From: Amoebophrya sp. A120 | Lineage: Eukaryota; Protista; Dinoflagellata | Assembly: GCA_905178155.1 (NCBI GenBank) | Contig: CAJINV010000004.1 | Location: 9,940,385 to 10,004,384, forward strand | DNA: 64,000 nt | Direction: 5' to 3' | In this document: piece after piece, positions 6,890-63,500 of the stretch | How positions within the stretch are numbered: the stretch's first letter is position 1 | How the letters are laid out: the number at the start of each line of letters is the position of its first letter | Notes under the pieces: generated by a model | Told to the model about the DNA's origin: nothing | Seen by the model: only the letters and a program-made list of their open reading frames with translations | Databases searched by the model: none | Translations under genes and position numbers: made by a program

Positions 6890-9800
6890 ATGAACATCAC
6901 CCGCCCCGATAAAAACAACATGAAGAACGCCGGGGAGGAGCTGGACCTCTTCTACCAAAATGACTTTTATGAGGAAGACACTGGCGAAAAGAACGGCGCA
7001 GATAATCCTACCCAAACGCAGCGGGACGAAGACGTCCAGGCCAACCGCTTCGAGATTGGCACCCCGGCCCCGAGTGCACGGGTAGATCGAACGTCGGACG
7101 ATGTTCAGCGCGACCACTACACGCCGGGGAGCTATTTGCAGATGTCGGCAAACAGTGTTGCCACTTCGTCGGCAGAGTACTTCAGCATTGCTTCGGCCAG
7201 GGGCGAGGGGACACAAGGTCTGCCGGTGGAGTCCTTCGATTTGAGTAGTTCGCGCACAAACAAAGCCGCGGAGGTGCAGGCACGACAGAAGGCCGCGTTT
7301 TTCCAGGCTTTTGGTGCGAAAGCGGACGATGACGACGGGGGGGAAGTGGACGAGACGGCGAAAAAATCTTTTAGCGCGAAAGGACAAGGATTAATCGTCG
7401 ACAACAATTTGTTCCAAGCAGCTGAGCCAGACATCGAGATGGGAGTCTTCACACCCACCTCGGCTTCACACAACAACCATCAAGCCGGCAACCCCAGTAC
7501 TGCTAGGCCGAGAGACCCGTGGCACGGGTGGCGGGTGGGGACGCAGGACTCGCGGTTGTTTTTCTACAAAAAGGACTTCCGGCAATACGAGATGCCCACG
7601 GTGATGGAGAGCCGCGTGTTCGGGAAGTGGAGGTTGGTGTACCCCAACGACGGCACGAAACCGTTTTACTACAACCGCAAGCTGAACCTGTCCCTGCCGA
7701 ACCACCCGGTGAACACGTTGAACGTGTTTGACGCCTGCTTCAAAGGCGATCTGTTTTACCTGCACCTGTTTCTGGACGCCTTCTGGCTGGAACTGAGCCA
7801 GGGTGTGTACGACATAGTGGACGACACAACAGGGGGTGAGGGCTCCCGCTTCGGGGCTGCAAGTAGTTCCTCCTCCAGCATCGAACTATCGGGCGCGGAC
7901 GAGACCACAACTCAAGAACAGAAAGATAGCGAACAGCCAGTTACTTCGAAGAAGGCTACGAAATCATCGAGGACGAGATCTATGCATTGAAAAAGTATCG
8001 TACTTGTATAGGTAAATGCATTACAAATTTCCCCAGCATGAGAAAAAAAAAGGTTTGTCATGCGAATTTACCTTAAAAAGAAAATTTAAATTTGTATATG
8101 CATGAATGCAATTACTACGAACGAGTACGATACTTTTGCCCAGGATAAGATCCGCCGTGGTTCAATCCCTCGCGACCATCGCGGAGGAGGCTATGGATGT
8201 GTCCGGTTCGAAATCGACAAAGTTGAAATGATTTGTCATGCATAAAATGCAAGGCATGATGTGCCTGTCTTGCCGGGATGGCAAGTGAGGCCGATTGTGA
8301 GCTTGTTTAGGGTTTGAGATAAAGCTGCTAAAGTAGCATAACAAAAGACGCCTTCTGTCCCTAAACAGCATGACAAATTGGATTCCGGTGCTCGGAAAAT
8401 TTGTCATGCGCCACGGCGGGTGGCTCGCAGCAATAAGGAAACTGGCAAGGGTAAACATCTGTCTGTGCTTGCAATGCGCTGATGGACTGTGCTCTGCCAA
8501 ATAGTGAAGTAATTTGGACTACTCCAGTTCTGGTCCCGTTGCTGTATATTGTGCGCGGGTGCTGGGTGGAAAGGTCCAACAAATATGTTGGCGTGTGTGT
8601 GTGTGTGAGGAGGAAAGTTTGGAGTGCCAGGTCCGTTGGGCCCGGGGTGGCGGCGTCTTTGGGTTGATCAAATCACCCGAAACACAATGCCACCTCGTGT
8701 TGCACAGTCTGTTTATGTCATGCGCCACTTGGAAACTGCGCTTCCGACTGGTATCGGCTTTATGCATGACAAACTATAATTTCAACTTTGACGATTTCAA
8801 TCCTGACACTCCCATAGAGGCCGCGGCGGTGGAAGAGGTGCGGAAGCGAAAAATGGACAAGTTGCAGCGACTCGCGGAGAAGTTGCAGATCGGGGCCGCC
8901 GCGCCGGTCGGACCCTTTCCAGCGGTCGGCGGGGGGAAGCGCCCGGTCCTGTTTTTCGAAGGCGAGCACGCCATGACGCCCGGTGGAAATAACAACGGCA
9001 GCGACGTGTCCACACCCTCGGGGCGAACGCCGAAGTCGCCACTGTACCGCGGCGACCGGCTGATCACGTCGGGGTTTAGCTTGACGCAGCAGGACTCGAA
9101 GAATTCGAGTGTGGCTGGAGGGCCAACAGCTTCCGTTCTTTCTGGATATCGAATGCAAAAATGTCTGGGTCTGGAAGAATGCAAGATTTGTCATGCATAT
9201 TTCTCATGACCGATGATGCCTAGAATGCTTGGCCTAGCATCGCAGACTTTTAGAGGGCTTCCTGATGCATCTTCCGCATGAGAAATACCCTGTCCGTGTA
9301 GCAAATACTGTACCCCTCTTGCTGGTCATGCAATACAAATTTTTTTAGAGTCCAAAAGCAGCATGATAAGTCGCAATCTTCCAGACCCAGACACTTTTGC
9401 AGTTGATACTGGAGCAGGGGGTGCAAGAACTCCACTGGTGCCAGGCAGTCCTACGAGGGCCGCGGGCGCTGCGGCAACCGTTGGCGAAAAACCGGGCACC
9501 AACATGACAACGCCCGCACCTGAAATGAAACCCAAGATGACTGTGGACAAGGCCGCTGCGATCATGAAAAAAGCGGCTACTCTGGTACCGAAATTGTCCT
9601 TGACGCCACCGGGCAAGGACGTGAAGAACGCCCAACCGGCTTCTGGGGGGAAGATGATGATGCAGCACTTGCCGCAAGAAGGCCTCGCCAAAGCGAAACA
9701 GAGCGGGTTGGCGACCGCCACAGCGTTGCTGGCAAAAATCAAGCAGGGGCAGGCCTCGTCCTCTTCACCCGCAGGAGCTGCTTCGCCGAAGTCACTACTG

Positions 9801-12800
9801 CAAACAGGCCCTGTAGTACTGGGCGTGCCGTCGTTACGTGGAACAACACTTGCGTCGTCGCCTTTGGTGGGTGGGAGCAGCCGTGGAGGTGCAGCTGCAG
9901 GAGTCTCAAACTTTTCTCCTGTCGCACAACTACAGCGGCCACGAGTCGTCGAACCAAAGGAAATGTCCGTGTCAGTACAGACGCCACGACTGGCGCGAGG
10001 TGCCGTCAACGAGGAAGAGGACTCCGAATCCAACGCTTCCAGCCGCGAGGGTGCTGTCGTGGCAGGAGCAAGCCTCGGGGCGGGAAAGAACGTGGTCGCA
10101 CCTTCTTCTCGAGTCCTTGCGCCGGAGAGTAAAACGAGCGCCGTGGACGAAGAGGTGGAATTGTTCGTGGGCGCAAAGTATGCATTGCAAATATGTCTGG
10201 GTCTGGAAGGTTGCAAGTTGTGATGCTGTGTTTCCACACTAAAAAGATTTGTACTGCATGACCAGCAAGAGGATTCCAGTTTGTGCTACGTGGGGGGGCA
10301 TTTGTCATGCGGAATAGGCATCAGGAAGCATTCTAAAAATCTGTGATGCTAGGTTCCGCATTCCAGACCTCATGGGTCATGGGAAACCTGCATTACAACC
10401 TTGCACTCTTCCAGACCCAGACACTTTTGCAGTTGATACAAAGGAAATCCTGGTCACGGAAAGTCCCTCCCCCTCAGAATCTCCGTCGCCCCCGCTGACC
10501 GCGCGCTTCCCCGTATCATGAGGAAAAATGCCCCCTCCCCATATCGAAACAAAGTTTCTGATGCTGGATTTCCATACACAGATCAGATTTGTCTTGCAGT
10601 AGAGGAATGCACGCATATGTCAAGCCTCAGCCGAGAGGTTTGACGTAGGCGCCTAGCATGATAAACGTGTATGCTCTGAGCCAAACAGCATTACAAACCG
10701 CCTGAAAAATGCGGAACGCTTTCTGGACTTGCCTTCTTGCAAGACAGACAGGATTTGAGGTCACAAATGCGCATCACAAATTTTCAGACGGATACGCTTT
10801 CGATATGGGGAGGGGGGATTTTTCACTTCGATACCCCGCCTCGACGCCTCCGCTGACGTCTCGCGTACAGCCGGGAGCTTCGACATCGCCCCCACTGACC
10901 GCGAGAATGTTGGTACCGGCCTCGTCCTATGAAGATGAACTGCAAAAGTACCGTACTCCTACTCGTATAAATGCATTACAAATTTTTTCAGCATGAGAAA
11001 TAAAATTTCTAATGCGGATTTACCTTACAACAAAGATTTGTAATGCAAGACTTGCATTTCCATTTATACGAATACGTATAGATACGATACTTTTGCACAG
11101 GATACGTCCACGCCGCCCCTGACCGCCAGGATTGATCCGGACAAGCCACTGCAGCTGCAGACGGTGGTGGATGGAGTGCCCGCGAAATTGCATGTAGTTT
11201 CCGAGGGAGGAGGTCCTCGTGGCGGAACTAAAGGACGAGAAAGTGCTGGAATAAAGTCGTCTCCTGTGCAGCCTGCAAAAAAACCTACAAACTCTTGGAC
11301 ACCACAGAAAAAGTCCTCGACGCAACAAGAAACTATTCCGGCAACTACTAATACACCGACTGCCGCGAAGCAAGTGCAACAAGAGGGACAACTATCCGGC
11401 GCTTCCTCGCGAAAAAAGTCCTCGACCGCGACCCCTGGCGGAAGTACCATTGGTGGAAAGGCCCCGGCGCGAGAACTTCTAGTGGATGAACAAAAAGCGG
11501 CAGCTGTGAGCATGAGCAGCAGTGCCAAGAAAAATCAAACCCCTTCTGCTCCTGCAGCTAATGCTAGTGCAGCCGCTAAAGCACCTGCACCACCAAAAGC
11601 AAAAGCTGCTGGAGGTGGTCCTGATCCTGGTTCAGGAGCTGCCCAGGACGAGAAACCTCCGTCCCCGCAGCGTCTTATCCAGGCCGTTCCTCTGATCTCG
11701 CCAGCAACGGAACAGCTGCCCCCAAGTGGGGAACTGCAAGAAGGGCAATTACAAACGACGTACCCAAGTAGAACCAACGAGCCCTCCGCATCCACCGAGG
11801 AAGCGGCGAACGTGCGCGACGCGGTGCAGACTTATCCTTATCCTTGGAATGAGGGGAAGGATTTGCCGCCAGAGACCGCCTCACCGGTGCGCGGAAAAAT
11901 TCACGCGAAAGTCGAAAAGCGGAAACACCAGAGGAGGCTGTCCGCCCTGCGGCTCACGCAGATTGAGATAAGCAATCGCACACATCATCGATCATCCGGG
12001 TCTGGAACATTTTTGCAGCAGAGGGGCGGGGTGGTCATCGCCATGCCTTATTTCCTCAGAGGCCATTTCCATGCCATGCGTCATTGCCATGCCACAGAGT
12101 TTTGTGAGAGATTGTGTGAAGTTGAAGATCCAGAGCTAGCATGACTCATTCTCGAAACCACTTGAATTGAAATCGAGACTCGGAACTACGATATGTGCGC
12201 TGCATATGAGAATTACTTGAGCTATTCGGACCTGGATGTCGCGGCCACGCCGTCAGCGAGCAGTGTGGTGCAACAAGGGACACGACCAGCACCGGTGGTG
12301 CCAGAGTCCCCGGTTTTCAGCGAGCATTCCGGTGCGGGCACCCGCACCAGCCAGCAAAGCTCAGTTGCGGCGAGCTTCCACGAACTGCATGGTTTTAACA
12401 ACAGCAGCATGACCACGTCAGGGCGAAGCAATAAATTGGCTTCATCACAGACGAGCACGGGAACAAATAAGAGACAGCATGACTTGGAATCGGTCCTGGC
12501 AAAGCGGACGCTTCTGTACGATGATAAGGAGAACGTCATTTTCGAGAAAACCTCGCGTAAAACCCTCGTGCACTACGCCTGCATGGCAACCCAGGAGCGA
12601 ATCGTCCAGTACCTCGTGGAGTGCCACTCGTTCGGCATCCAAACGGTCGACGCCATGGGCTTCGCCCCGCTGCACATCGTGGTGCGAAACGGCGCACTGT
12701 CCCTGGCACGGTACCTCCTGCACGCGCGCGCGAACGTGAATGACAAAACGCGAAACGAGTTTGCGGACACCGCCCTGCACATGGTTTCCAGCCTGGCCAT

Positions 12801-14049
12801 ATGCAGTGCAAATATGTCTGGGTCTGGAAGCTTTCAACTTGTGATGCTATGCTTCGACTCCAAAAAAATCTGTATTGCATGACCAGCCAGAGGAGTTCAG
12901 TTTGTGCTACGCAGAGAGGGCATTTCTCATGCGGGTCAGGGATCAAGTTCAAGAAGGCCTCAGAAAACCTTTGATGCTAGAGCATACATCACAGATATGA
13001 TGGACTATGCAAAATGTGCATGACAAACTTGGCTTCTGCCAGACCCAGACATGTTTGCAATCCATAGGCCAACCCCTTTTCCATCACGTCCTTGCTGCTG
13101 GAGTACCAGGCCAACTGCTTCGAAACCAACAGCGACCACTGCACGCCCTTAGATGTGTATGAGAGTGCACAACTCCCCCTCCCCCTCATTTCAAGGGCAT
13201 AAACAGCAACACAAGTCCTGGCATCAACGCAGCTTTTGCATGACAAATTTTCGACCGATTCTACTGCTGTTTCGGCTTCTGGAATTTGCCATGCAAGCAG
13301 TGCCAAAGGGAAAAGGGTGGATTAGCATTTGCTGTTTTGCATGACAAATGAGGGGGAGGGGGAGTTGTGCACTGTCATAATGTGGTGCAGCGTTCCAAGA
13401 ACCACCCGGCGCGAGACGCCTTGCTCTTGATTCTGCAACGGGAGTCGGAGCGGCAACAGCACGCGGAGAAGCAGCGGCAGGCGAGTGGTGCGGAGGGCGG
13501 CTCTATGACAGTGCACAACCCCCCCGCCCCGTGATTTGTATAGCATGAACGGCAATACAAGCGCCAGCGAGAATGCAGGTTTTGCATGGCGAATTTGCAC
13601 AGGATTGTCGTGCTATTATTTGGGCTGCCAGAACTTGTCATGCAAACAGTGCCAAGATAGAGGCACAGCCTGGATTGGGCATTTCGCATGACAAATGAGG
13701 CGGAGGGGGAGTAGTGCACATTCATAGGCTCTTCCAGTGGCGAAGAGGTGGACATCACGATGTCGGAGCGGTCGGCAGAAAAACTACTGGGCCACGACAC
13801 GATCATATCGCAGGAAAAAAGTGGTACAGTGCAGGCAAAGCAAGACAGACAAGCTCTCTCATGCCGGATATGCATAGGAGCCTCGTTTCATAGGTGTTTT
13901 GCCGTAGGATTTCTGCATTACAAGTTTGCTCTCTCATGCAGAGAAATTTGTGTTGCTGAATTGACAACAAATGTGTAACTGTAACTTTTTTCGTGGGATA
14001 AATCACTCGGAGAATCTGGGCGAGCCTGGCGGCGTTCATTGGGAGGTAG
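6890..14049 (+). CDS. WW-domain and ankyrin-repeat protein, about 1382 aa, 12 exons separated by 11 introners
   Basis: Two WW-like motifs (WRVG..LFFY..P; WRLV...PFYYN..P) and ankyrin repeats (TLVHYAC, APLHIVV, TALHMVSSLA|NPFSITSLLLEYQAN..CTPLDV). Exons 6890-7980, 8153-8191, 8822-9146, 9414-10178, 10444-10513, 10839-10927, 11110-11968, 12212-12799, 13072-13157, 13385-13503, 13732-13805, 14006-14049 sum to 4149 nt, with one open frame ending TAG. Confidence 0.85.
7981..8147. mobile_element. TIR introner, family B
   Basis: TATGCATTGAAAAAGTATCGTAC...GTACGATACTTTTGCCCAGGATA; DR AGATC; frame restored. Confidence 0.9.
8192..8816. mobile_element. TIR introner, family D, carrying a nested insertion
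   Basis: About 38-bp imperfect TIR TATGGATGTGTCCGGTTCGAAATCGACAAAGTTGAAAT; DR GAGGC; sibling at 52392-52698. Confidence 0.9.
8415..8715. mobile_element. 301-bp insertion nested in an introner, flanked by a 13-bp duplication
   Basis: TGTCATGCGCCAC at 8402-8414 and 8716-8728; the motif is single-copy and the insert absent in sibling 52392-52698; internal (GT)n run. Confidence 0.7.
9147..9408. mobile_element. TIR introner, family A (inverted orientation)
   Basis: TATCGAATGCAAAAATGTCTGGGTCTGGAAG...CTTCCAGACCCAGACACTTTTGCAGTTGATA; DR CTGGA; 267-nt removal joins ORFs 8514 and 9363. Confidence 0.95.
10179..10438. mobile_element. TIR introner, family A
   Basis: Same TGTCTGGGTCTGGAAG TIR; DR CAAAG. 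Confidence 0.95.
10514..10833. mobile_element. TIR introner, singleton TIR type
   Basis: TATCATGAGGAAAAATGCCCCCTCCCCATATCGAAA...TTTCGATATGGGGAGGGGGGATTTTTCACTTCGATA; DR CCCCG. Confidence 0.9.
10928..11104. mobile_element. TIR introner, family B
   Basis: TATGAAGATGAACTGCAAAAGTACCGTAC...GATACTTTTGCACAGGATA; DR CGTCC. Confidence 0.9.
11969..12206. mobile_element. Degenerate TIR introner
   Basis: TAAGCAATCGCACACATC...GATATGTGCGCTGCATA; DR TGAGA; 243-nt removal joins ORFs 11164 and 12193. Confidence 0.8.
12800..13066. mobile_element. TIR introner, family A
   Basis: Family A TIR; DR GGCCA; removal rebuilds an ankyrin repeat. Confidence 0.95.
13158..13379. mobile_element. TIR introner, family C
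   Basis: TATGAGAGTGCACAACTCCCCCTCCCCCTCATT...AATGAGGGGGAGGGGGAGTTGTGCACTGTCATA; DR ATGTG. Confidence 0.95.
13504..13726. mobile_element. TIR introner, family C
   Basis: TATGACAGTGCACAA...GTAGTGCACATTCATA; DR GGCTC. Confidence 0.9.
13806..14000. mobile_element. TIR introner, A-tract type
   Basis: TATCGCAGGAAAAAAGT...ACTTTTTTCGTGGGATA; DR GATCA/AATCA. Confidence 0.8.
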
Positions 14050-17242: not shown

Positions 17243-20200
17243 ATGAGTGCTGGCACAGCTCCGGGACCACCCTACATCGCCCTCCCTGGTGGAGCTGGGG
17301 GCCTAGCACCCTCCAATATGGCAAACGCGAACAATGAAAAAAAGACCAACTCGCCTCCACCCCCGATATTGAAGGAGAACAAAATGCGTTTTAGCGACGA
17401 AAACAAACGAAAGCTGAGCTGTGTGATGGAGTCCATGACGGCGGAAAAGGTAATGCTTTTATGAAGGGCGTGAATTTATTTTGCATGCGTATTCTGCGTA
17501 CTTATCAAAAACAAAATCTTCGAATCTACAGGGATTGTACTTCCTTGCACCTTATTTCGTAAATTGCAAGATTTCATCGTCAATAAATACGACAGATCTC
17601 GGCACTCAAGACGTCCTTTCAGAACAAAAGCGCGCTGGGTAAGAACCTCATACCGGGTGCTATGAGAGTGCAGAGGATGAACTCCTCCTTCATTCGGCTT
17701 CTTGTCGCTGGAAGATCTGCAAAGAGTGCGCAACTACTTACGCTAGGCATTGCCTTTTGCTTCTAGCTGCGGTACCGCAATGGTGCGTAACAAGTTCTAT
17801 ACAGAAGTAGCAGAGCGAGAACTTCACTTCTAGCACCCCAAACTACGAAGAAGTTGCTGTTGCGATAGTAAGATTTATAGGCCGCGGACTTGTCAATGTC
17901 ATGCAGCAGAAAGTACAGACCTTGTTCTTCCGAGCGGCCCTTTTGACTGCTGGTCTTGCCTTCCGAATGGCCTACAACTGAAGGAGGAGTACTTGTGCAC
18001 TTCCATACCTGGCTCAGGTGCACAAGACGAGGCAACCAAGCAGGAAAAATCCTATGCCCAGAAAGTTGCAGAATGCGTCTCCGGGCTGGTCTCCTCGAAA
18101 AACGGCACCTTGATCGGACCGAGCAAGGGGGATGTGATCGGAGGGTTCACCCTCGGGCTGATACTCATGGCGCAGTCCGTTGCCCACGCGGGTCTTTGCG
18201 GTTTGAGTGGGGCGGACTTGATTCACGGGCCCTACAGCTGCATATTACCGCCGCTGATCTATGCGTGTCTCGGCTCCAGTCGCCACGGTTCGGTCGGGAC
18301 CGGGAGTCTGGTGGCGTTGCTGACGGGACAGTTCATCAAGAACGCGGAGATCAACAATCACCCAATAGCGGCACAGGTGAGTAGAACATGATGTGACATT
18401 TTTGCGACAGACGGCTAAGCTTCTTCTCCGCACAGAAGTGGTTGGCACTGTGATCTTCGAACAAAAATTATCGTTTGGTTCTTTTCTCATTCTTTATGCA
18501 AAAAGATGTTTTTTTATCAAATTCAAACATCACTGCAGGTCGTGTGCATGACCACCATAGTGGGGATCGTTTTGATCCTGATGCGGCTTCTCCAGCTCCA
18601 AGCGCTCGTGAAATTTCTCTCCCGCGCGGCCCTCGTCGGTTTCGTGTATGCGGTGCAAAAGTATCGTACTAGTATAAATTGCATGACAAATTTGCTCAGC
18701 ATTACAAATGAAATTTCTCATGCTGATTTACCTTGAGAAAGAGATTTGTCATGCATAATTGCAATTACTACGAGTGCGATACTTTTGCACTCCATATCGC
18801 GAACGCCTCCGCGATTCTGATCATCGAGTCCCAGTTCCGCGCCGTGATCGGGTTGAGAAAAGACCCCAACCAACCACAAGGGTTCCCGGGAAAAGTGTTT
18901 GATTTGGTGAAGCAGCTGATCAACCTGGACTTCGTGAACTGGCAGATCGGGGCCTTGGGTTTGGCGCAGTTGCTGCTGTTGTTCGCGGCGAAAAAGATCA
19001 GTAAGTCCAAGTGGATGAAAGACGCGGCGGAGCAGAAAAAGGGTTGGGTTCCGTTTCTGAAATTCATCTTCAAAATGAAAGATATCGTCGCGGTCTGCTT
19101 CGCATTCGCGGTCTCCTACGTGGTCACGGAAAACTACCCGGCTGTGGACCTGAACAACGTAGGTGCGTTGCAGTCCGGGCTCCCAGCAATGATCTTTCCA
19201 CCATCGCCAATAGCGGTAAAGATCGCGCCACCCGTTGTATTACCGTCAGACACGACCCCGCCGTCACGACCTGTTGACCCCTGCGACCCGAGTAACACCC
19301 CAGACACGGTTCTTTTCTACTTCGGTAGCGAAAACGCGGACGGCCACACCTCGTGCGTCCGCGTGTCCGGGTTGTGGCAACAGCTGCTTCCCGGCGGCGC
19401 GGTGGTTGCCTTTATCGCATTCCTGTCGTCATTTGCCGGCGCGAAGAAATTTGCCTTGCAGGACGGGACGTATCAGGTCGACGCGTCGAAGTATCTCAGA
19501 GAAAAAAGCCAGCATGTCATGCAGTGAGGATGCAAGAAGCAAGAGACGCGACGAGATAAGTATGTAGTTTTGTGTACTTCATTCATCGAGACGTATCTGT
19601 TTTTGCATTAATACAGTCGCTAGCTTTTTCTCTTCGATACGAAAGAATTGAACGCGCTTGGGACCGCGAATCTTCTCGGCTCGTTTTTCGGCGCCATCCC
19701 GGTGCAGGTCGGCTTGAGCAGAGTATGACATTGCACAAGAACTCCTGCTTCCCCTGCGACCCCTCATTGGTCTTGCCAAAATTATAAATCGAAAGTAACT
19801 TCTAATAATTTCCTTCTGAGGAGCATTACAGCATTCATAAAATTCAAAATCCAGGCGCTGCCGTGGTGGCGGTTCTTGCGGATTTACTGTCATGCGATGA
19901 AAGCTACATGTTTATTTCTAGTTGTGGCTGCAACTGAAGGTGAAGGGCAAGGAACATGGAGGGGAACTAGTCCTGGTTCTGCACCTTCATACCGCACCGC
20001 GATCGGCTACGAGGCCGGCGTGCAGTCCCAGTGGGGCGGGAACGTCGTGGTGGCCGTGATGGTGATTTTTCTCTCCCTTCTCTTCACCCCGATCTTCCAC
20101 TACGTCCCGCAGTCCACGCTCGCCGCGATTATCATTTCCGGTGCCTCGGGGCTGTTCGATTTCCAGATCGTGCGATACCTGTACAACATGGAGCCCGAAC

Positions 20201-22507
20201 TGTACAAGAAGCGCGGCTTTTGGATCAACATTGTGGCTTTCGTCGGAACGCTTCTTGTCGGCGTCGCGCAGGGCATTTTGGTCCCGGGGTTTCTCTTATG
20301 AAATGCAAAAGCATCGTACTAGTAGAAATCGCGTGACAAATTCCGTCAGCATAAAAAATGAAATTTGTAATGCGGCTTGAGGTTAAGAAGGAGATTTGTA
20401 ATGCATGACTGCGATTAGTACGAATGCGATACTTTTTTCAGAGGATTTCTCTCCGTCTTTTTGCTCATCAAGGACGCGACAAAACTGCGCGTGCGGGAAA
20501 TGGGAAAGCTACCGCAGTCGAATATGACAGTGCACAATTAGTCTCCTCTTTTCTTATTATTTTATTTTGGAAGGACAACTGCAACTGGAAAGAAGTGGCT
20601 GTTGAGTTTTGCATCACAGTTACAACCAGAACCATCTTAATTCACCAGAGTGGGGGACCACGAGTTGTGCACTAGCATATGGGAATCTTGGAGAACGAAA
20701 GACACTTGGAAAACAGCAAGATCTGTGCCGGACATTTTGGCGTTGCGGCTCGAGGGCAATCTATGCAATGCAAAAGCATCGTACGAAGTATAAATTGCAT
20801 TACAAATTATAATTGACTTAGCATTACATAATGCTGATTTACGTTGAGAAAGAGATTTGTAATGCATAAATACAATTACTACGCGTGCGATGCTTTTGCA
20901 GAGGATACAGTCTGACCTTTAGCAACGCGGATGCGCTGTTTGATGAGATAACGAAGCACGTTGGTATAATATGTTTTTTTGAAGATTTGATGAAAGAAAA
21001 GAAACAAATTTTAAACCCGGATAAACACGTAATGAGTGAATGAGTGAATGAATTTTTTAAGGAGGTAGGTTTTTTTTGCGTAGTTCTTCGAAGATGTTTC
21101 AAATTCATTCATTAGCGTCATGGAGCAAAGACCCTAGAGTTTCTATCGCATGAACAACAACAGAGGGCAACGGCGGGCTCGAGGGTGATGCCATCAAGGC
21201 TCTGGTTCTGGACATGGGCAACGTTGCGATCTGCGACTTCTCTGCCCTCGCGGTCTTGGAGGAGATGGCAGCAGCCTGGCGGAGGAAGAAGAAATTCCTG
21301 ATCATAGTGGCCACACGGGACAACATCCGCGAAAGATTGGAACGGTTACTCATGCCGCTGATACCCAACCCGTCACTGCTACTGAACACAGACGACGGGG
21401 TCACGCTCGCGAAATTTCTCATCACCGGGGAGGCGGCGACCCGACCAAGCTCGCCCGTAAGGAAAAGCTCGAAGGACCAAAGTATGGAAGCGCCAGGAGG
21501 TGGGAAATTTCGTCAAAATCGGAAAAGACTGCGATTTATTTGCATGCGCGCGGGCCCGCAACTTTGAAGGTGCGCAGGAAAAACAAGAAGCCCAAATCCA
21601 ATACACGATAGCAATACGGTTTGATGTATCTCCTGCTCCGAAATAACGCACTTCTTTTGCCATGCTCTTTCGCAATATCTCTGGCTACCATTGGCTGTGA
21701 CAGGCAACTGTACATTGTGTTCTGCAATGCAGACATTTCTTGGAAGCATATCATGTCATGCATCACAAACCAATCCATCGGGATTTTCGTTTTGCAACCT
21801 TTTCACGACCTGGCACTTCCATAGACGGCCAGCAGGGTTCCTTACAGAAAGTGGTGATAGAATACGACGAGAAGACGTCCGTAGGATCCGCATCGGTACC
21901 ACGGATTTTCATTTTTTTGTAGTTTTAAGTTTAGCATAAGCTATCACATTCACCGTCGATCTTCTTGCACATCCGGCTTATCATAGGTACATCGTAATCC
22001 CGAGGGATCCACCTCCGACATGTTGATGCAAAACACTCTACACAGATTCCACCGTCCCTGAAGTCTTTCGTCTGGGCAAAATTCAACGCGGACGAGCTTG
22101 ACGAGATGCACAGTGAGTTGCACAGTCGCTACGACGCCGTGGCCCACCGGTCTTCTAGCCGAGACAATGGCCCTTCGTCCACTAGTAGGGACACCGGTCC
22201 ACTAAATCAGCCTTTGCTCAGCACGAATGATAGATCGCAGTCCGCAGACAGTCCGCAGCGTGGTAACGCCCCCTTCTACCAGCCCACGCAGCGGCTGTCC
22301 GGTGCAAGTGTCGGGTCCGACGCGAGTCGATCGCCGGGGCAGGAAAGATGGACGAAACTCGGAACCTCAACCTTTTTTCAAAGTCGAAAGCTGAACGTGC
22401 TGGAATCGACGCGGTTAAACCGGGAATTTTCGGAAGTCGCGTTAACCCCGATAGCAGCGACGGCGAGCAACCCGGCTAATCCGAGCAGAGACAACCTGCT
22501 GCAGTAG
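17243..22507 (+). CDS. SLC26/SulP-family anion (sulfate) transporter with C-terminal STAS domain; multi-exon
   Basis: GDVIGGFTLGLILMAQSVAHA, LIYACLGSSRHGSVG, DASK|ELNALGTANLLGSFFG..GLSR, PQSTLAAIII, LRLEG.LTFSNA, LVLDMGNVAICDFSAL. Seven introners plus GT-AG introns (18377-18538, 20964-21163, 21896-22045). The 5' exon structure (17243-18016) is uncertain. Confidence 0.9.
18647..18796. mobile_element. TIR introner, family B
   Basis: TATGCGGTGCAAAAGTATCG...CGATACTTTTGCACTCCATA; DR TCGTG/TCGCG; restores GF(V/A)NASA. Confidence 0.9.
19492..19639. mobile_element. TIR introner, A-tract type
   Basis: TATCTCAGAGAAAAAAGC...GCTTTTTCTCTTCGATA; DR CGAAG/CGAAA; restores DASKELNALG. Confidence 0.85.
19724..19991. 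mobile_element. TIR introner with decayed DR
   Basis: TATGACATTGCACAA...TTCTGCACCTTCATA; flanks CAGAG/CCGCA; 5-nt rule restores GLSR(T/A)AIG. Confidence 0.75.
20297..20447. mobile_element. TIR introner, family B
   Basis: TATGAAATGCAAAAGCATCGTAC...CGATACTTTTTTCAGAGGATT; DR TCTCT; restores PGFLSVFLLI. Confidence 0.9.
20523..20679. mobile_element. TIR introner, family C-like
   Basis: TATGACAGTGCACAA...TTGTGCACTAGCATA; flanks TCGAA/TGGGA. Confidence 0.8.
20762..20907. mobile_element. TIR introner, family B
   Basis: TATGCAATGCAAAAGCATCG...CGATGCTTTTGCAGAGGATA; DR CAATC/CAGTC; restores the STAS motif G(N/S)LTFSNA. Confidence 0.9.
21483..21823. mobile_element. TIR introner with decayed DR, D-related
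   Basis: TATGGAAGCGCCAGG...CCTGGCACTTCCATA (14/15 match); flanks CAAAG/GACGG; 5-nt rule restores the frame. Confidence 0.8.
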
Positions 22508-23525: not shown

Positions 23526-25648
23526 ATGGAGCATTCCCAGCACGGGGCCTCCGTGTCCTCCACGAGGCCTTCGCATGGAGGTGGCAGCCCGAGCGGGGAC
23601 AAGAAGAGAACGCAGCTGTTGTTCGATATGAGTCTCAAGCAGGGCGACCATGCCGCCGTGTTTCTGCATGGCGAGAGCTACAAAGGCGAGTGGCTGAACG
23701 ACAGAAAGCACGGCTACGGGGTGTTCACATACAAGGACGGTAGGAAAGTTTTTGTCATGCAGGAACAGATGACATATTCGCATGGTCTGAGTTGAAACTA
23801 CAACCCTACATTGTCTCTATTTGCACACATTTTCACCACAGGCGGCAGCAAATATGAAGGGCAGTTTGCACACAACAAGAGAGAAGGCGAAGGAGTCCTG
23901 TGGATGGCAGAGGGAAAACTAAAGATGCGAAAGGAATACATCGGCGTATGGAAAAACGACAAGAGGCACGGGAAAGGTATTTTTATTCTAGTGGATTCGA
24001 TGAGACAGAGAAAGTAGAACATTACTTGTCATGCAGAAGACGATGAAAGCCAGCAACTGCAATAGCAATACTACTGGTAGTACCAAGACGAGGTCAATTT
24101 GGTTTTGGTTTGTGCTGCAACAACACACTGACAATTTGAATTTTCCACTCGAAACCATTGAAAAAAAGGCACCGCCTTTTACCCGCATGGCGAGTGTTAC
24201 CAAGGCGAGTGGCAAGACAACAAGAGACATGGAGAAGGGCAAATGAAGTACAAGGACGGGTCACTTTATGTAGGGCAGTGGTTCGACGACGTCAGGACAG
24301 GCTACGGTACATTTTCATTTTGTTTAGCCGTGTTATTCAGGATTTGCATGACAGAGTCGGCCTGTAAAAACAAAAAGTCATCACACCAACACAACAATAA
24401 AAACAGGTCACCTAACAAAGGGAAACGGCGACGTATACGAGGGCTATTGGGTGAAGGACGCGAGGGAAGGCGGGGGCAGTTACTTCTACAAGTCCACCGG
24501 AAAAGTGTATGTGGGCGAGTGGGCAGCAGACCAACCCATCGCAGGGTCCTTCCAGCAGGCTTTAAAAAATCCAGCGGAGCCAGGTACAACAAAAATAATC
24601 TTTCGTAGACGTACAAATGGATGCTGAATCTCTGTCATGGGAATGCGAAAGGCACAGTGAGTTATTTCTCATGCAAGTTACTCCAACAAAGATAAACACA
24701 AACTTGAAAATAAACCGAGGTGTCCTCCCCGTGACCAACATCGTCCCGAACCTCCAGCTCCAGGATTCGGAAGAGGTGCTCGAGACCGCCCTCCAGCACG
24801 TTCGTGCCAGCAGGCTGCTTTTCCGCGCCGCGCACACCCCACTGGAAAAACTGTACCCGAACACCGCAGATTTGCAACAACTGAAGCAAGCGTTTGCGGC
24901 TTTATCCCCGGACCAACTGGCGAACCAATTTCACGCGGTGGTCACTACGCACCTGGAAATCCTCCCACCGACAAGTTCGAAGACAAAGTTAGACGCCGTC
25001 GTCGCCTATCAAATGTAAAAATGTCTGGGTCTGGAAGGTTGGAACTTGTGATGCTAACTTTGGACTCTCAAAAAAACTGCATTGCATGACCACCAAGAGG
25101 AGTCTAGTTTGTGCTACGCAGGGAGGGCATTTGTCATGCGGAGTAGACATCAGGAAGCGAAGCCCTCTAAAAATCTGTGATGCTAGGTTGCGCATTACAG
25201 ATATCCTGGGTTATGCGAAATATGCATGACAAACCCGGAAACATTCCAGACCCAGACATTTTTGCATTTGATATCGCGAAAATGTTTTTGTTGCTCGGGC
25301 AGGTGGACACGGACCGGTGGGAATTTCCGGTTTTCGCTAAAATCGTCGCTGATATGCTTTGTAATATTGCCATGATCTTTTTATTTATTCGGGAGTACAA
25401 TTTTGTATGTAGTGCGCAAGTTCTTGTGCGCCTACAAGGGCGACTGTGCAACATTTTGCATGCTTATGCATGTACACGTTGAGCGACTTCATGGTGATTT
25501 TGCAAAGGATAGCGCTTCTAGTGGACCAGGCGCCGACGTTTTGAGCATAGGAATCGGACTTCTTGAACAACTATTTGGAGAGGAAGAAAACCAAAAAGAA
25601 AGACGAGAGTCGTGTTACTGTCCTACAAAGACAGTTGTGATTGTCTAA
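23526..25648 (+). CDS. MORN-repeat protein (MORN3-like)
   Basis: Repeated YxGxWxxxxRHGxG units (YKGEWLNDRKHGYG, YEGQFAHNKREGEG, YIGVWKNDKRHGKG, YQGEWQDNKRHGEG, YVGQWFDDVRTGYG). GT-AG introns 23740-23841, 23977-24168, 24307-24406, 24584-24719; introner 25007-25273; 3' end uncertain (25482 or 25648). Confidence 0.85.
25007..25273. mobile_element. TIR introner, family A
   Basis: TATCAAATGTAAAAATGTCTGGGTCTGGAA...TTCCAGACCCAGACATTTTTGCATTTGATA; DR TCGCC/TCGCG. Confidence 0.95.
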
Positions 25649-51157: not shown

Positions 51158-54100
51158 ATGTCGTGGCGTGCGGAGTCGCAATTTGTCACTCAGCAGCAGG
51201 TATCAAATGCAAAAATGTCTGGGTCTGGAAGGTTGGAACTTGTGATGCAAACTCTGGAACACACAAAAACTTGTGTTGCATGAGCGCCAAAAGCTGTCCA
51301 TTTCTTGGCACGCAAGTAGGAAGCTTCTCATGCGGGACAGGCATCACGAGGCGTGCTCAAAACCTGTGATGCTCTTGCATGCATCAGACGCCATTTGCGT
51401 GATCCGAAATATGCATGACAAGTCTCAGAATCTTCCAGACCCAGACATTTTTACATTTGATAGCAGGAGAATGAGAAAAATTTCATGAAAATCGCAAAGA
51501 AGATCCGCGACATTGGGAAATTGGAACTGCATATCAAAAGAAAAAAGTTCGTCACGATCACTCATGGGCATTTTTGCAATACAAAATTGTCTGTCATGCG
51601 TAAAAATGCATCACAGCCACACTTCATAAGGGATTTCTCTAGTGTTTCTGTTCTGCAATACAAGGAGAAGTTGTGATGCTAAAAAAATTTGTAATGCAAA
51701 GCCTGCAACTAAGTGACTGTGACAAACTTTTTTCTCTCAATACTGCAAGCGCATGTCGAGGCAAACCAGCAACAGAAATTGCAGCAGAAGGCAGAGTTGT
51801 TGAACGAAATCGCCGAAGTGAAAGTCGATCGGAGTTTTTGGAGCAAATTCGACGACGTATTGGTTTTTTCGTGTTTGATATGCATATGATGACGATGTAT
51901 TGATGCACCATTATTTGTAGTTTTTGCTTTTGGCATGATCAAGATCACGTCTGGCTGTCGCTTAGTCTCAATCCAACCTTTAAATCCGTTAAAATTAAAT
52001 AAAAACAGATCTGGGCCCTCCTTCCACCAAAAGCGCAGCAGCGGATCGAGTTTCGCAAGGCACAGGCCGACGCCGAGGAGAGAAGGAAACAAGAGGAGAA
52101 AGAAGAACGAAAACAGCGCAGCCTGAACCACGTTGAAGAAGATGTCAGGAGAGCACCAGTACAGTTCATAATTTTGGTTCTTGCATATCAACATGATGAG
52201 GAGAACACATCACTAGTACTTGCATCAACATTTCAACAGAATGTTGACATGTCGCACCTCTGGTCGTGCTAGTTCGACTTTGACCCCAACATGCTATAAT
52301 CTTCATACACAATTACTTGACCAACTACAGGAACTCAACTTCGTGGTTCGTCACGAGCGGCCGGTGACCGACATGTGCTACGACGAGCAGATATGGAAGC
52401 GTCAGGTTTGAAATCGTCAAAGTCGAAATAGTTTGCCATGCATAGAATGCAGCCCTCAAAGTGCCTGTCGTGCAGAGTAGGCAAGTAAGGCAGGTTGTAA
52501 GCCTCTTGAGGGGTAGAAACTGAGCTGCTAAAGTAGCATGACAAAAGGCGTCTTTCTTACCCAAACAGCATGACAAACTGGATTCCGGCTCTACCTAAAT
52601 TTGTCATGCGCCACTTAGAAACTGGTTCACAACTTTCATCCATTTTGTGCATTACAAGTTTTTTCAACTTTGTCGATTTCAATCCTGACACATCCATAGC
52701 AAACCGGCTTTCTCTATTCCAGTTCCAAGGACAAGGCGGTCGTCCGGTGGGACGTGCATATCCAAGAAAAAAACGTTGTTAGTGTAAGTTTGTGATGCGG
52801 AACATGCAAGATGATTGCCTCTGTCATGCTTGGCATGCGTTGTAGGGTCCACTAGAGGGCGTTTTCACGTGCTATCTGCGCATGACAGGTTTTTGCTGTC
52901 ATTCCAGAGAGATTTGTAATGTTGTTCCTCCAAAAAACTTACACCTACAATTTTTTTTTCTTGGATAGTGCAGGGGCACAAGATAGTAGCGCACACGACC
53001 CTGTGTGGGCACGAGGGCGCGGTCTGGTGCGTCGACGTGCACCGGGGGGAGGTGGTAACCGGTGGCGCGGACGGGCTCTTGATCTTCTGGTCCGCAGACC
53101 CAAATGCCGGCCGGGGAAAGAAGGAGAAGGTACCTACATACTTCGTGAAAAGTAGATTTTTCGTAACATATTACGCGGTGCGAAAGCGCTTGCTTACCTT
53201 GACGTACGCAAACACTTTTTGAATTTGCCATGTAGATGTACAAGAAATATGTTATTATACACGGTTTTACATCAAGCGACAACCAACCTCAAATGAAAAC
53301 AGATCCAGCAGCCGCACAAGGTCCAGAACTATGGCGGGATTATCAAAGGGCTCCGGGTGCATGACGCGGGGATTTGCCTTTACACCGACAAATTCGGCCC
53401 GAAAAACCCGGCGCACATCGCCTGCCTTTCCCGTGACGACCCCACGCAGGTGATCTGGAAGACCACGGACATTATCAAATGCAAATATGTCTGGGTCTTG
53501 AACGTCACAACTTGTGATGCTGTCTGTGGATTCTAAAAAAATTTGTATTGCATGACCAGCAAGAGGGGTCGGGTTTGTCCTACGTCGAGAGGGCATTTCT
53601 CATGCGGTAGAGGTATCACAAAGCCCCCTAAAAATCTGTGATGCTACGGCATGCATCACAGAAATCATGGCTCATGGAAAATATGCATGACAAATCGAGA
53701 AATCTTGCACCAGACCCAGACACTTTTGCATTTGATAGACATCCACTGCAAGATTAACCAGCTGATCTGGGGTCCGGTGGGGCAGCCAAAAATCTTTACC
53801 GCGCACGACGACGGTAATTTGAACATCTGGGCCGGAGCGGGCGACGGCGAGGGCGGCGGAAAGTTGATGAAGAGCGTGACGACGCTGCATGACAAGGCGA
53901 TCATATCGATGAACACGCACAAGAACTTCATCTTAACAGCCTCCAGCGACATGACGGTGAAGGCAATAAATTCCGGATCCAAGGACCTCCCGGTTTGCTT
54001 TCACGCCAAGGCGAATAGGCCACTCAGAGCAGTAGCGGCATGGGACTTCCCAGAGGAGAAATGTGAAAAAATTTTTCAAAATGCTTATGCATTGCAAAAG

Positions 54101-54894
54101 TGCCGCTCTTATCGTAAGCGGACTATGAGTAGAAATCGCAATACAAACTTTCCCAAAAAGAGTAAGAGATGAAGAAATGCATATTTTCCATGCTTTTTTC
54201 CTTCAGATCATCGATCTGTTATGCATGAAAAGCACACGAATCCAAAACCACCAGGTTTCGCCTTCGTCTACGGGGGTGGCCGGGATCCGAAGGACGTGAC
54301 AACTTCCTACCTTCTACCGGATGAGTTCGACTTTTACCAGTCCTACCTCGGCGAGTCGCAGTCCACCATTATGACCAAAAACGGGTCGGCCGGGCCGCTG
54401 CACCGGCTGATTTGGGTGATATGGATTGCAAAAATGTCTGGGTCTGGAAGATTGCAACTTGTAATGCTGTCTTTGGATTCCACCAAAAAAATCTGTATTG
54501 CATGACCAGCAACAGGACTCCAGTTTGTGTTACGCGGACGAGAGGGCATTTCTCATGCGGAATAGGCATTAGGAAGCCCTCTAAAAATCTGTGTTGCTAG
54601 ATCATGAATTAGAGGCATCAATCATCATACAAAATATGCATGACAAGTTTGCATTCTTTCAGACCCAGAAATTCAAATTTTTGCATTTGATAGGTGAACC
54701 CGCTGAACAAGGTTTTTGCGGCTAGCGAAGATGGTGAAGTGAAGATGTGGGATATCCACAGAAAAAAACCCATCCACATCCAATTTGTCGTGCAAAACAC
54801 GTATCAAATCATGTGTTTGTCATGCAAAAACTGGATGTGGATGGGTTTTTTTCTGTGGATATGGGACGCAGAAACGCTACACCAGATGAGATGA
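51158..54894 (+). CDS. EIF3I: eIF3 subunit i (TIF34)-like WD40 protein with an N-terminal coiled-coil extension
   Basis: After splicing: RHERPVTDMCYDEQTGFLYSSSKDK, TLCGHEGAVWCVDV..VVTGGADG, FTAHDDG, ILTASSDMT, RPLRAVA, YGGGRDPKDVTTS, GPLHRL, ASEDGEVKMWD, matching the eIF3i motif order. Seven introners plus GT-AG introns 51857-52008, 52144-52330, 53130-53302, 54063-54254. Confidence 0.75.
51201..51462. mobile_element. TIR introner, family A
   Basis: Family A TIR; DR GCAGG. Confidence 0.95.
51532..51742. mobile_element. TIR introner, A-tract type
   Basis: TATCAAAAGAAAAAAGTTCGTCAC...GTGACAAACTTTTTTCTCTCAATA; DR CTGCA. Confidence 0.9.
52392..52698. mobile_element. TIR introner, family D
   Basis: TATGGAAGCGTCAGGTTTGAAATCGTCAAAGT...ACTTTGTCGATTTCAATCCTGACACATCCATA; DR GCAGA/GCAAA. 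Confidence 0.9.
52759..52967. mobile_element. TIR introner, A-tract type
   Basis: TATCCAAGAAAAAAA...TTTTTTTCTTGGATA; DR GTGCA. Confidence 0.9.
53473..53737. mobile_element. TIR introner, family A
   Basis: Family A TIR; DR GACAT. Confidence 0.95.
54420..54692. mobile_element. TIR introner, family A
   Basis: Family A TIR; DR GGTGA. Confidence 0.95.
54753..54861. mobile_element. TIR introner, family E (minimal, 109 bp)
   Basis: About 30-bp perfect TIR TATCCACAGAAAAAAACCCATCCACATCCA; DR TGGGA. Confidence 0.95.
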
Positions 54895-56043: not shown

Positions 56044-56098
56044 CCGGTCTCGCGTCGCCTTGCCGCCGGCGGCCGGCGGCAAGGCGACGCCAGACCGG
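56044..56098. repeat. Near-perfect 55-bp GC-rich palindrome
   Basis: CCGGTCT-C-GCGTCGCCTTGCCGCCGGC-G-GCCGGCGGCAAGGCGACGC-C-AGACCGG: 27-bp arms, one mismatch, 1-nt centre. Confidence 0.9.
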
Positions 56099-60596: not shown

Positions 60597-63500
60597 ATGA
60601 GCGGCCACATCGTACGCGCACAGCATTCGAAGGAGTCCTCGCACAGCGCCCGTGAGGAGCGCCGCCGGCAGCTGGAGTTGGTGCGGCAGGCGAAGGTATC
60701 AAATGTAAAAATGTCTGGGTCTGGAAGATTGCCAGGTTTGTCATGCACGTTTTGCATGACTCCTGATGTCTGTGATGCATGCCCTAGCATCACAGATTTT
60801 GTGAGGGCCTCCTGATGCCTATACCGCATGACAAATGCTCTTTCCGTGTAGCAAAACTTGGACTCTCTTTGCTGCTCATGCAATACAGATTTTTTTACAA
60901 TCCTAAATCAGCATGACAAGTTGGATTCTTCCAGACCCAGACACTTTTACAGTTGATACAAGGGCATTTTGGAAGCCAGGGAGAACGAATTGATGTTATC
61001 TTCGTCTGAAGACAGTTCCGTATCCTGTGCAAAAGTCTCGTACTCGTAGTAATCCTAATCGCAGTCATGCATTACAAATTTCTTGCTCAAGTGAAATCCG
61101 CATTACAAATTTTATTTCTCATGCCGAGGAAATTTGTCATGCGATTTATACTAGTACGATGCTTTTGCATTTCATATTCCGGTGGAAACAACAAAAATAT
61201 TAAAACAAATAGCAGCAGCAGGAACAGGAACAAAGAGCCGCCCACATCCAAATCCAAGTCCCCGAAAGCACGCCCAGCCGCGCCGCCCGACACCTGGGGC
61301 CCGGTGCGCAGTCGCGTTTCGGGCAGGATGGGGAGCAAGGAGCGGGTCGGTCTGCGGGATCGTGATCGAGGACCACGTGATGCAGGTCCGCCAACTGCTT
61401 TGACGTCGCGGGGTGCAGCTGCCGGAAGACGGCGATCGCGCTCGCGGTCCAGGGGCGACCGGAATGTTGACACGAGACGGAGTAGAAACTACCTTTCGAC
61501 GCGGCCTGCAGAGGTTCCTAGAAGAGGAGGTCCAGCACGTGGTCCACCTGAGCGGACGACCAGGACCAGCCGCGAGCGGGGGAGAAATAAAGACTCCGGT
61601 CGCGGAGCTGCTCCACCGCCGGCGAAGAATGCCCCGCGGAGGTCGAGGTCCCGGTCGAAGAGAGGGCGGGATGGCCAAAATGGCCAAGATGACCGTCGTG
61701 ATGAACCACGACGCGCAGCAGGTGGAACGGAAAAAAGAGACCCGGCCAAAAAGAAAGACCTACCGGAGATAGAAAGACCGGGTACAACAACGACCGTCGA
61801 CGGACGGAGGAAGGGAGGGAGAAAGAGGAGCTCCAGTTCCGAGCAACGGGCAGTGAATAAAGTTAAAGACTCCCGGAAGCAGGACGAGAATAAAGTTGTG
61901 AGGAACCGTGGTAAAGGTGAACAAGAGCCACCGCTCTCTCCTCCTCGCCGACCAGATACAACAACACGAGCTGGCGACCACCTATCCTTTGCAAAAGTAC
62001 CGTACAACTCGTATAAATGCAAGTCTTGCATTACAAATATTTTTCTTAAAGTAAATCAGCATGACAAATTTCATTTCTACTCATGCTGAGAAAATTTGAA
62101 TTTCTAATGCTTTTCAACGAGTACGATACTTTTGCAGTTCATACCACCGGGACGAGCAGCGCAAAACCCAGAAGGAAGCTACCCGACGACAAGTCGTGTC
62201 GTCTCGCGATCGGGCACAACAAACTCGAGGCAAACAAGACAGCAAGCGGGATATAATTACTGGGCGAAATAAGCCTGATGGTGTGCAACGGGACGAACGC
62301 GCCAGGACGGAAAAAGATAGAGGCAAGGAGAAGGGCACAATCGAAAGAGCAAGTGGGCGAGTAGATCACGGAGCAGAAGATGTTGTCAGGCGTGCTGCCC
62401 GGTCCCGTAGTCCCATTTCCCGTCGTGATGTTGCAAAAGGGAAAGACACCAGAGCATCTCAGCGTCGACGTGCAGATGATGAAAACAACAACAACAAGGC
62501 TCGTGTTGACAACAAGACAGCCACGACTGAAAATGAAAATCGAGATCCACCGCAGCGAAATAGAAGAAGCCCAGTGAAACCATCACCAGAGGAGGAACAA
62601 CTTGACAACAAGAAAAACTATGAATTGCAAAAGTATCGTACTCGTATACATGCATTACAAATTTCCTCAGCATGAGAAATAAAATTTGTAAATGCTGATT
62701 TACTCTAAGAAAAAGATTTGTGATGCATGACTGCAATTACTACGAGTACGATACTTTTGCGCAGGATAAAAACAAAACCACTACGACCGGGAGCCGTCGC
62801 ATGGACGACAAGATCGCTGCGAAAATTGCGATATGCATTGCAAAAGTATCGTACTCGTAGTTGTAATTGCAGTCATGCATCATGACAAATCTGGTTCCTT
62901 AGCTCATTCAGAATAGCAAATTCCATTTTGCCTTCTGGCAAAATTTGTAATGCTATCTCTACTAGTACGATAGTTTTGCAATGCAAATGCGACCAAGAAG
63001 CAGCAAGAGAGCAGCTCTTCCTCAGATGAATCGTCGTCGTCGGACTCGGAGGATAATTCCTCATATCCACAGAAAAAAAACCATCCACATCAAATTTGTC
63101 ATGCCAAACACGCATAAAGTCCACTATTTGTCATGCAAAAAATGGATGGGGGTGCGATGGATGTTTTTTCGTGGATTCCCTAAGCTCCTCCTCTCCAAGC
63201 GCACGGAGGACCAAGCAGAAGAAAGAACCAGCTAGCGTAGACGAGCAGAACGGGAACAAGAAGGATGCCAAGATGAGGGCCGCTGACGGGTCAGCGAGGA
63301 ACAACAACAGTAGAAACAACAGGGAACAACGGCAAGTTGCTGGTGCAAAGACGACTGTCCGGCGCGAGAATTTATCCGAAAATAAGCCAAGACCGAGAAA
63401 AGACGAAACGCGAGAGGACGAAAACAATGCTCTTTACAGCCGAGGACGTCGTGGTCGACGTTCCAGCAGCCGTGACCGCAAGAACACAAGAAATAAAGTT

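Follow-up and report, generated by a model that had tools for sequence, protein, structure and literature searches.

Why should a stretch of DNA from the marine parasite Amoebophrya sp. A120 carry one short internal word in transposon-like families that do not share their terminal inverted repeats? The window (the whole 64,000 nucleotides analysed) includes an exon 100% identical to a protein of this strain, compared with only 73% for the A25 protein. Its TAT...ATA elements are members of the known A120 introners, for which the text of Farhat et al. 2021 (PMC7789003) describes TAT-N7-AAA ends, direct repeats and non-canonical splicing; as presented there, A120 introners number tens of thousands in nearly 2,000 families without matching transposases, and the mechanism of their spread is left open. 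Hand curation of the window gave 37 such elements, totalling 8,355 bp (13% of the window). The first base is T at 72 of their 74 ends, the second is A at 73, and the third is T at all 74, a count that was seeded in that TAT was the search seed for ends; A dominates positions 11-14, and the ends are TAT-N7-AAA-like. A 5-bp target duplication, matching in at least four of five bases, accompanies 30 of the 37 elements, and TA..TA termini, a defining feature of IS3EU/GingerRoot, are present. A120 is a genome in which most introns are non-canonical.

Exact matches to GCATNACAAA number 53 in the window (29 on the plus strand, 24 on the minus), against 0.77 expected and a highest count of 3 in 100 shuffles. 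Fifty-one lie inside the 37 elements (Table 1), and the remaining two, at 23751 and 27383, are within GT-AG introns. Site density by region was then taken from a weight-matrix scan with a cut-off of at least 10 bits. Intact elements carry 17.8 sites per kb (55 plus and 66 minus, though window genes all run on the plus strand), a density that is partly circular because the matrix was trained on window elements, and the enrichment is backed independently by the exact-match count and by sister-strain loci, where element DNA accounts for 580 sites and the remaining 106 kb for 21. By the same scan decayed elements have 3.2 sites per kb, and 14 introns without terminal repeats have 4.7 (11 sites versus 0.9 expected). 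Exons (0.17 per kb; 5 sites versus 5.1 expected) and intergenic or UTR DNA (0.28 per kb; 3 versus 2.2) are at chance level. The initial annotation, made from the sequence by eye, had called the motif common in elements and rare in exons and had proposed intergenic DNA as the comparison; both contrasts are borne out, and all 16 positions that it listed are matches, with a one-base offset in two (18745 and 61133).

Table 1. Introners, decayed elements and motif-bearing introns of the window, with motif sites by position and strand
Feature	Position	Strand	Remarks
Family B (F0) introner	7981..8147		Copies 8018+, 8036+, 8054-
Family E (F3) element with internal insertion	8192..8816		Pair 8336+/8368+ (32 bp); 8232-, 8400-, 8764+
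Family A (F1) introner, reverse orientation	9147..9408		Site 9187-
Family A introner	10179..10438		
Family F8 introner	10514..10833		Three pairs at 32-33 bp
Family B introner	10928..11104		
Family A introner	12800..13066		
Family C (F4) introner	13158..13379		Sites 13238+, 13339+
Family C introner	13504..13726		
Introner grouped with F2	13806..14000		
Decayed family-C-like element	17661..18007		Zero motif sites; still spliced, CT..TG
Family B introner	18647..18796		Sites 18681+, 18699+, 18745-
Two decayed elements, 19492-19639 and 19724-19991	19492..19991		No site of at least 10 bits; spliced
Family B copies 20297-20447 (pair 20364-/20395-, 31 bp) and 20762-20907	20297..20907		Decayed element 20523-20679 between
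Decayed family E copy	21483..21823		
Four GT-AG introns, MORN-repeat gene	23740..24719	+	Strong motif copy in each; without terminal repeats
Family A introner	25007..25273		Five strict sites
Decayed element	25353..25511		Without motif; still spliced, AT..GC
Family C introner, reverse orientation	26676..26916		
GT-AG intron (inferred)	27314..27429	+	Pair 27350+/27383+, 33 bp; without terminal repeats
Family F7 introner	27759..28009		Four sites; only family without 31-33 bp pair
Family A copy 51201-51462 and family F11 copy 51532-51742	51201..51742		Both spliced
Family E copy 52392-52698 (pair 52536+/52568+) and F2 copy 52759-52967	52392..52967		Spliced
Family A copies 53473-53737 and 54420-54692	53473..54692		GT-AG intron 54063-54254 holds decayed family B copy
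Family F (F5) introner	54753..54861		Antisense sites only; spliced
Family A copy 60697-60958 and family B copy 61021-61176 (pair 61069+/61100+)	60697..61176		Both reversed
Family B copies 61983-62143 (pair 62028+/62059+), 62619-62768 and 62832-62987	61983..62987		Spliced in both orientations
Family F introner	63064..63177		Pair 63095-/63127-, 32 bp; antisense only; spliced

In viral contigs there were 0 matches to a family A end and 35 to the pair pattern, with enrichment in a single tandem array; the single match in prokaryote genomes was taken as chance, and the 15 motif-rich loci inspected among other metagenome loci are tandem repeats or near-single matches. The open literature and the supplement text of PMC7789003 yielded no earlier report of the motif, prior mention being possible in figures (the logos of Fig. 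S25), subscription journals or Roy et al. 2023, which lie outside that scope; the sections of PMC7789003, as distinct from its figures, describe no internal motif, and its supplement text contains neither 10-mer.

Families were defined by terminal repeat and duplication alone, with no use of the motif, over the window plus the sister strain. The 11-base word GCAW[G/T/C]ASARRT occurs in 12/12 multi-copy families. Conservation is 0.92-0.97 at its core positions, 0.84-0.94 over the terminal 14 bases and 0.73-0.85 in other columns, and the core is the most conserved part in 10/10 families. Once the motif and 16 terminal bases are masked, zero pairs of family consensuses align at E<0.01; weak longer similarity links some families (F2/F11, F4/F7, F8/F9), which are not fully independent of one another. 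The terminal repeats, described earlier as unrelated, do differ between families, but all are TAT-N7-AAA-like with a 5-bp duplication, and a C-rich inner box is common to families 4, 5, 6, 8 and 9. The notion that terminal repeats are motif copies themselves was considered and rejected, being true of only 2 of the 12 families: the resemblance (at least 8 bits) is seen at 37 of 184 ends of families 0 and 1 and at no end of the other ten. Old elements show decay of the motif and are spliced all the same; comparing motif loss with mismatches in the duplication gave no information (core divergence 0.055 versus 0.066).

The copies are also regularly spaced. In 11 of 12 families, family 7 being the exception, they lie 31-33 bp apart, or about three DNA turns, and the spacers between paired sites are dissimilar from family to family. 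This spacing is found in 8.1 of 14 groups in the window versus 2.0 by chance (1/3000 permutations) and, among sister-strain elements without a match to the search seed, in 9.3 of 14 versus 2.4 (0/5000). A cross-family GCAW[G/T/C]ASARRT with this spacing is new within the literature searched, and the suspicion of a common cis-element is supported, the word being conserved above the terminal repeat and fixed in its spacing. A general 10.5-bp lattice among all sites was rejected, as the periodicity is non-significant and the 31-33 step alone stands out. First sites lie 35-58 bases from element ends; in several families each end has, 43-49 bases in, a site that points outward. The distances of such outward-facing first sites bunch at 35-37 and 43-49 bases (Rayleigh P ~5e-4), which is suggestive only, the test having used 15 hand-picked values from non-independent families with the period poorly resolved.

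These features are probably best read as putative sites on double-stranded DNA at which one shared protein would bind, a protein that the elements would require for transposition; the likely candidate is a Ginger/IS3EU-like transposase of the integrase type or its host cofactor. Among the options first offered, a site shared by all families fits best as a DNA site, and a transposase as its binder stays putative. Paired sites three helical turns apart would present the same DNA face, so that a multimer could wrap the short element and place both its ends, TAT and ATA, in the catalytic site, with the 5-bp duplication as the outcome. Family-specific terminal repeats would be free to diverge, provided that the RNA stem fixing the splice cut still forms. 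If this reading is true, a single mobilising protein would account for the movement of many introner families without transposases of their own. None of 31 window ORFs, and none of 70 sister-strain ORFs (of 139), matches a transposase or integrase family, and the text of Farhat et al. (PMC7789003) reports no putative transposase in A120 and concludes that transposases do not generally mobilise introners there. If the motif acted purely before insertion, the 11 strong sites in the 14 introns without terminal repeats would not be predicted, unless these introns are truncated elements; the sole one shown to be so is intron 54063-54254, with its family B remnant (E=5e-11).

Known transposons offer partial likenesses to such a site. 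Mu, Tn7 and Tn402 combine arrays of transposase sites with a 5-bp duplication and integrase-type catalysis; A120 introners share the duplication and, on this reading, the arrays and the catalysis, and differ from these prokaryotic elements in their ends (TG..CA in Mu, Tn7 and Tn402), in site length, which is greater there, and in being introns. Closer to hand, supplement file 8 (row 580) of Gozashti et al. 2025 (PMC12130899) lists A120 family 38, which has integrase-like ORFs, as Ginger with "5-bp TSD, TA/TA Termini"; the window elements share the termini and the duplication but encode nothing. IS3EU/GingerRoot, as treated in PMC10045372, likewise has TA..TA termini, with a usual duplication of 6 bp rather than 5 bp. 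Transposase binding to MITE subterminal repeats is reported for Lemi1/Emigrant in PMC1636448, and the systems considered there (Emigrant/Lemi1, Sleeping Beauty, hAT and CACTA) similarly have short repeated words in both orientations and a defined arrangement on a non-autonomous element. Emigrant-type repeats, by that account, are family-specific and copy part of the terminal repeat, and in Emigrant and Sleeping Beauty the internal repeat resembles the terminal one, a likeness seen among the A120 introners only in families 0 and 1. The window word, in contrast, spans families with different terminal boxes and the whole element length, has the 31-33 bp step, and its binding is putative.

All 11 of the 11 element joints shown skip the element length plus 5, lengths that sum exactly and an open frame of 952 aa agree, and the cut has a fixed register, preceding TAT by 1 base and following ATA by 4. 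The contigs used here, guessed to be RNA, leave out introns precisely; run X9 of raw RNA, which matched only 50 bases of one terminal repeat, was not used. Thirteen of 34 spliced introns are without any motif site, and six of these have non-GT-AG ends.

It is unlikely, but deserves weight, that after insertion the motif DNA is bound by a host protein, either of chromatin or coupled to transcription, which would mark the intron and aid non-canonical splicing in a non-essential way. Such a mark would suit a motif that is strand-blind and spaced like a DNA site, and one retained in strong copies by GT-AG introns that have no terminal repeats; it would also suit a strain in which, according to the text of PMC7789003, U1 snRNA was not detected. 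Against it stand the motif-free spliced introns, the lack of any motif excess in intergenic DNA, and the old elements, which lose the motif and keep their terminal repeats (though it was by terminal repeats that they were found).

Quite improbable is that the motif acts in the transcript, where it would be a U-N-A-C signal akin to a branch point or a target for a protein or small RNA, with copies on both strands serving splicing either way. The branch-point consensus is yUnAy, which the U-N-A-C core resembles, and the outward sites 43-49 bases from each end would put a sense copy near the 3' end in either orientation. However, 18 of the 34 spliced introns have no sense-strand copy at 10 bits or more, splicing removes the elements at 54753 and 63064, whose only copies are antisense, and at 13 of 134 sites the supposed branch A is replaced by G. 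In families 5 and 6 the sites are confined to one strand, yet the elements lie in both orientations without bias (4:2 and 2:3). An Rfam search of the window returned zero RNA families. Taken together, the equal use of both strands, the one-strand families inserted both ways round and the motif-free introns point away from a splicing mark, and the suggestion that the motif is an obligatory one on RNA does not fit the missing sense copies and the one-strand families.

There is a similarly slim chance that the motif is a functionless relic of a repeat unit of ~32 bp in one ancestral element. The ends and duplication length shared by all families, together with the weak similarities noted above, would fit such descent, but the core tops conservation while the spacers have lost all similarity between families. 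Least probable of all, and largely refuted as a main role, is that opposite copies merely pair to lengthen the RNA stem, as 178 of 415 sites are predicted to do in register: 0 of 34 sites are paired in families 5 and 6, among symmetric pairs the variable base is complementary in 14 of 43 (family A: 3 of 21) and is uncompensated, and pairing would fix neither one cross-family sequence nor same-direction pairs 32 bp apart. Stem extension, which the initial annotation had raised, is possible but not required.

With a shared binding site preferred, we would tentatively entertain that the roughly 30,000 introners of A120 form one transposon system with a split code, in which a single enzyme reads the array of 11-bp sites at three-turn spacing together with the TAT ends, and the terminal repeats, ordinarily the part that a transposase recognises, serve as the RNA stem that sets the fixed splice register and are thereby free to diverge into hundreds of families. 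The copying signal, carried by the motif, would then be separated from the splicing signals, carried by the terminal stem and the fixed cut register. A short family-independent word with fixed spacing could serve as bait for the mobilising protein, as a filter for autonomous partners and as an age marker for introns. The motif also resembles the Oct4-Sox2 composite site, which we take to be coincidence.

One short word recurs throughout the introners of this window: GCATNACAAA is present in 53 copies where 0.77 are expected, 51 of them in elements and 2 in GT-AG introns. Its single-base variants almost always keep the G, C, A and the A of positions 6 and 8, with G, T or C at position 5; the refined word is GCAW[G/T/C]ASARRT (134 sites). 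At a threshold of at least 10 bits the motif is indeed rare in exons, as the initial annotation held (0.17 sites per kb), and in intergenic DNA (0.28), both at chance level, against 17.8 in intact elements, 3.2 in decayed elements and 4.7 in introns without terminal repeats. The 37 hand-curated elements (109-625 bp) run from TAT to ATA, or to a close variant of it, between the two copies of a 5-bp duplication, which agree at 4 or more of 5 bases in 30 of the 37. These ends and duplications match the A120 introner signature of PMC7789003, and the elements themselves are already known A120 introners; one exon of the window has 100% identity to a protein named Amoebophrya sp. A120. No earlier mention of the motif, its cross-family presence or its spacing was found in the A120 introner papers, supplement text and literature searches covered; subterminal binding repeats as such are already known.

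Metagenome contigs were scanned for pairs of motif copies 31-33 bp apart; this gave 122 stretches, found in 8 of the 64 parts of the collection, many of them in one assembly. Since a protein from that assembly shares 95% identity with one from A120, it represents a sister strain and not the genome of the window. Searching 45 of its loci (165 kb) by terminal repeat and duplication alone yielded 141 candidate elements; these and the 37 from the window fall into 12 multi-copy families plus 15 singletons. The motif, proposed earlier to be common to the element families, is carried by all 12, including three not in the window. In 29 longer loci, 580 sites of at least 12 bits fall in element DNA and 21 outside, a ratio inflated by the choice of loci holding a pair and by mask profiles that include the motif.

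In all 10 families having at least four copies, the motif core is the best conserved class of columns (0.92-0.97, against 0.84-0.94 for the terminal 14 bases and 0.73-0.85 elsewhere). Once motif sites and 16 terminal bases are masked, the family consensuses do not align with one another at E<0.01; without masking, weak longer similarity links a few pairs, and the families are therefore not fully independent.

No general 10.5-bp lattice was found among all motif sites, but one step is conspicuous: a centre-to-centre pair at 31-33 bp occurs in 9 of 14 eligible window groups (mean 8.1 versus 2.0 by chance; 1 of 3000 permutations), and among sister-strain elements not matching the search seed in a mean of 9.3 of 14 groups versus 2.4 (0 of 5000). 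Three turns of B-DNA measure 31.5 bp. The maps of 11 of the 12 families hold 20 such pairs, of which 16 have both copies facing one way and 4 are convergent; the nearly palindromic centre, TG-W-CA, may be the reason either direction fits. Spacers are unlike across families, short A or T runs excepted. On these maps the upstream copy of same-direction pairs often reads GCAA in place of GCAT; in families 0 and 11 the 32-bp step also contains a third site, at 14 or 18 bp.

The simplest reading makes the motif a site in double-stranded DNA, under selection during the copying of the elements. It probably serves DNA binding for mobilisation, with about two thirds of that confidence placed on the transposase itself. 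The paired sites would be bound by a transposase common to the families or by a host cofactor, and the family-specific terminal repeat would mainly supply an RNA stem. The end chemistry common to all families is that expected of one enzyme class. According to PMC12130899, one A120 family has integrase-like ORFs between its terminal repeats, and the supplement lists it as Ginger, "5-bp TSD, TA/TA Termini". IS3EU/GingerRoot elements share TA..TA ends but usually have a 6-bp duplication, in contrast to 5 bp here (PMC10045372), and a transposase has been shown to bind the subterminal repeats of Emigrant cooperatively (PMC1636448). Two observations count against mobilisation: no transposase was found among 31 window ORFs and 70 of 139 sister-strain ORFs, and strong sites persist within introns without terminal repeats. 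Intron 54063-54254 aside, these sites may reflect a host role of the motif after insertion; within that GT-AG intron lies a family B (family 0) element that has decayed, which demonstrates how an introner can turn into a canonical intron.

The initial annotation suggested a splicing mark; a required RNA mark is contradicted by the introns themselves, read from contigs of runs presumed to be RNA. The contigs skip elements exactly, all 11 element joints shown removing element length plus 5; for other introns the predicted exon sums equal contig offsets exactly (811, 967 and 538 bases), and removal of 12 introns leaves a single open frame of 952 residues. Among the 34 introns supported by joints, exon sums or open frame, 18 have no site of at least 10 bits on the sense strand, and in 13 the antisense strand has none either (intron 23740 counted as site-bearing for an antisense site inside its trimmed end); 6 of the 13 lack GT-AG ends. 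The elements at 54753 and 63064 are spliced although their copies are antisense only. Elements of families 5 and 6, whose sites are essentially on one strand, occur in both orientations when set against the inferred gene strand (4:2 and 2:3, counts that include sister-strain elements, the spliced introns being from the window only). Nor do oppositely oriented copies form a required stem: predicted folds of 104 elements pair 178 of 415 sites with an opposite copy; in families 5 and 6 none of the 34 sites is paired in this way, and of 43 symmetric pairs just 14 have complementary variable bases. Given splicing without sites, antisense-only splicing, and the orientation and pairing counts, the motif is required neither as an RNA signal nor as a stem.

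Modest covariation links the two terminal-repeat arms at positions 9-30 in 3 of 5 families, subfamily descent being uncontrolled. Decayed duplications allow the splice cut to be placed: it falls 1 base ahead of TAT and 4 bases past ATA (fixed exactly by two joints, three allowing the same cut or a one-base shift). Under this cut the second intron base is always U, whatever the end dinucleotides, and the terminal stem therefore seems to set the splice register.

Features of the window and of one sister-strain locus
Feature	Coordinates	Strand	Observation
Window genes identified		+	IQ protein; ankyrin proteins; sulfate permease; MORN protein; WD40/eIF3i-like protein; methyltransferase
Intron used to place splice cut	17660-18011
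Intron used to place splice cut	18646-18800
Intron used to place splice cut	25352-25515
Intron used to place splice cut	52391-52702
Intron used to place splice cut	63063-63181
Intron skipped in contigs	11964-12206		No GT-AG ends, clear terminal repeats or motif
Six GT-AG introns	23740-24719; 26982-27429		Near-perfect motif copies; no detectable terminal repeats or family similarity
Family E (family 3) copy	8192-8816		About 310 extra bases inside interior
Long-exon region (23 kb)	28010-51200		Strict motif 0; one decayed element only (33749-33917); two similar ankyrin-containing genes
GC-rich stretches (up to 70%)	45000-45950; 55700-57700; 41300-41750		0 Pfam matches
Stretch without cover	55869-57938		Cover absent in four RNA-like runs
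Family-B-like element, 1,209 bp	L027:433-1641		Perfect 5-bp duplication; GC-rich interior; 0 Pfam matches

The long sister-strain element may derive by deletion from an autonomous partner, and the GC-rich stretches of the window are possibly remnants of other mobile DNA.
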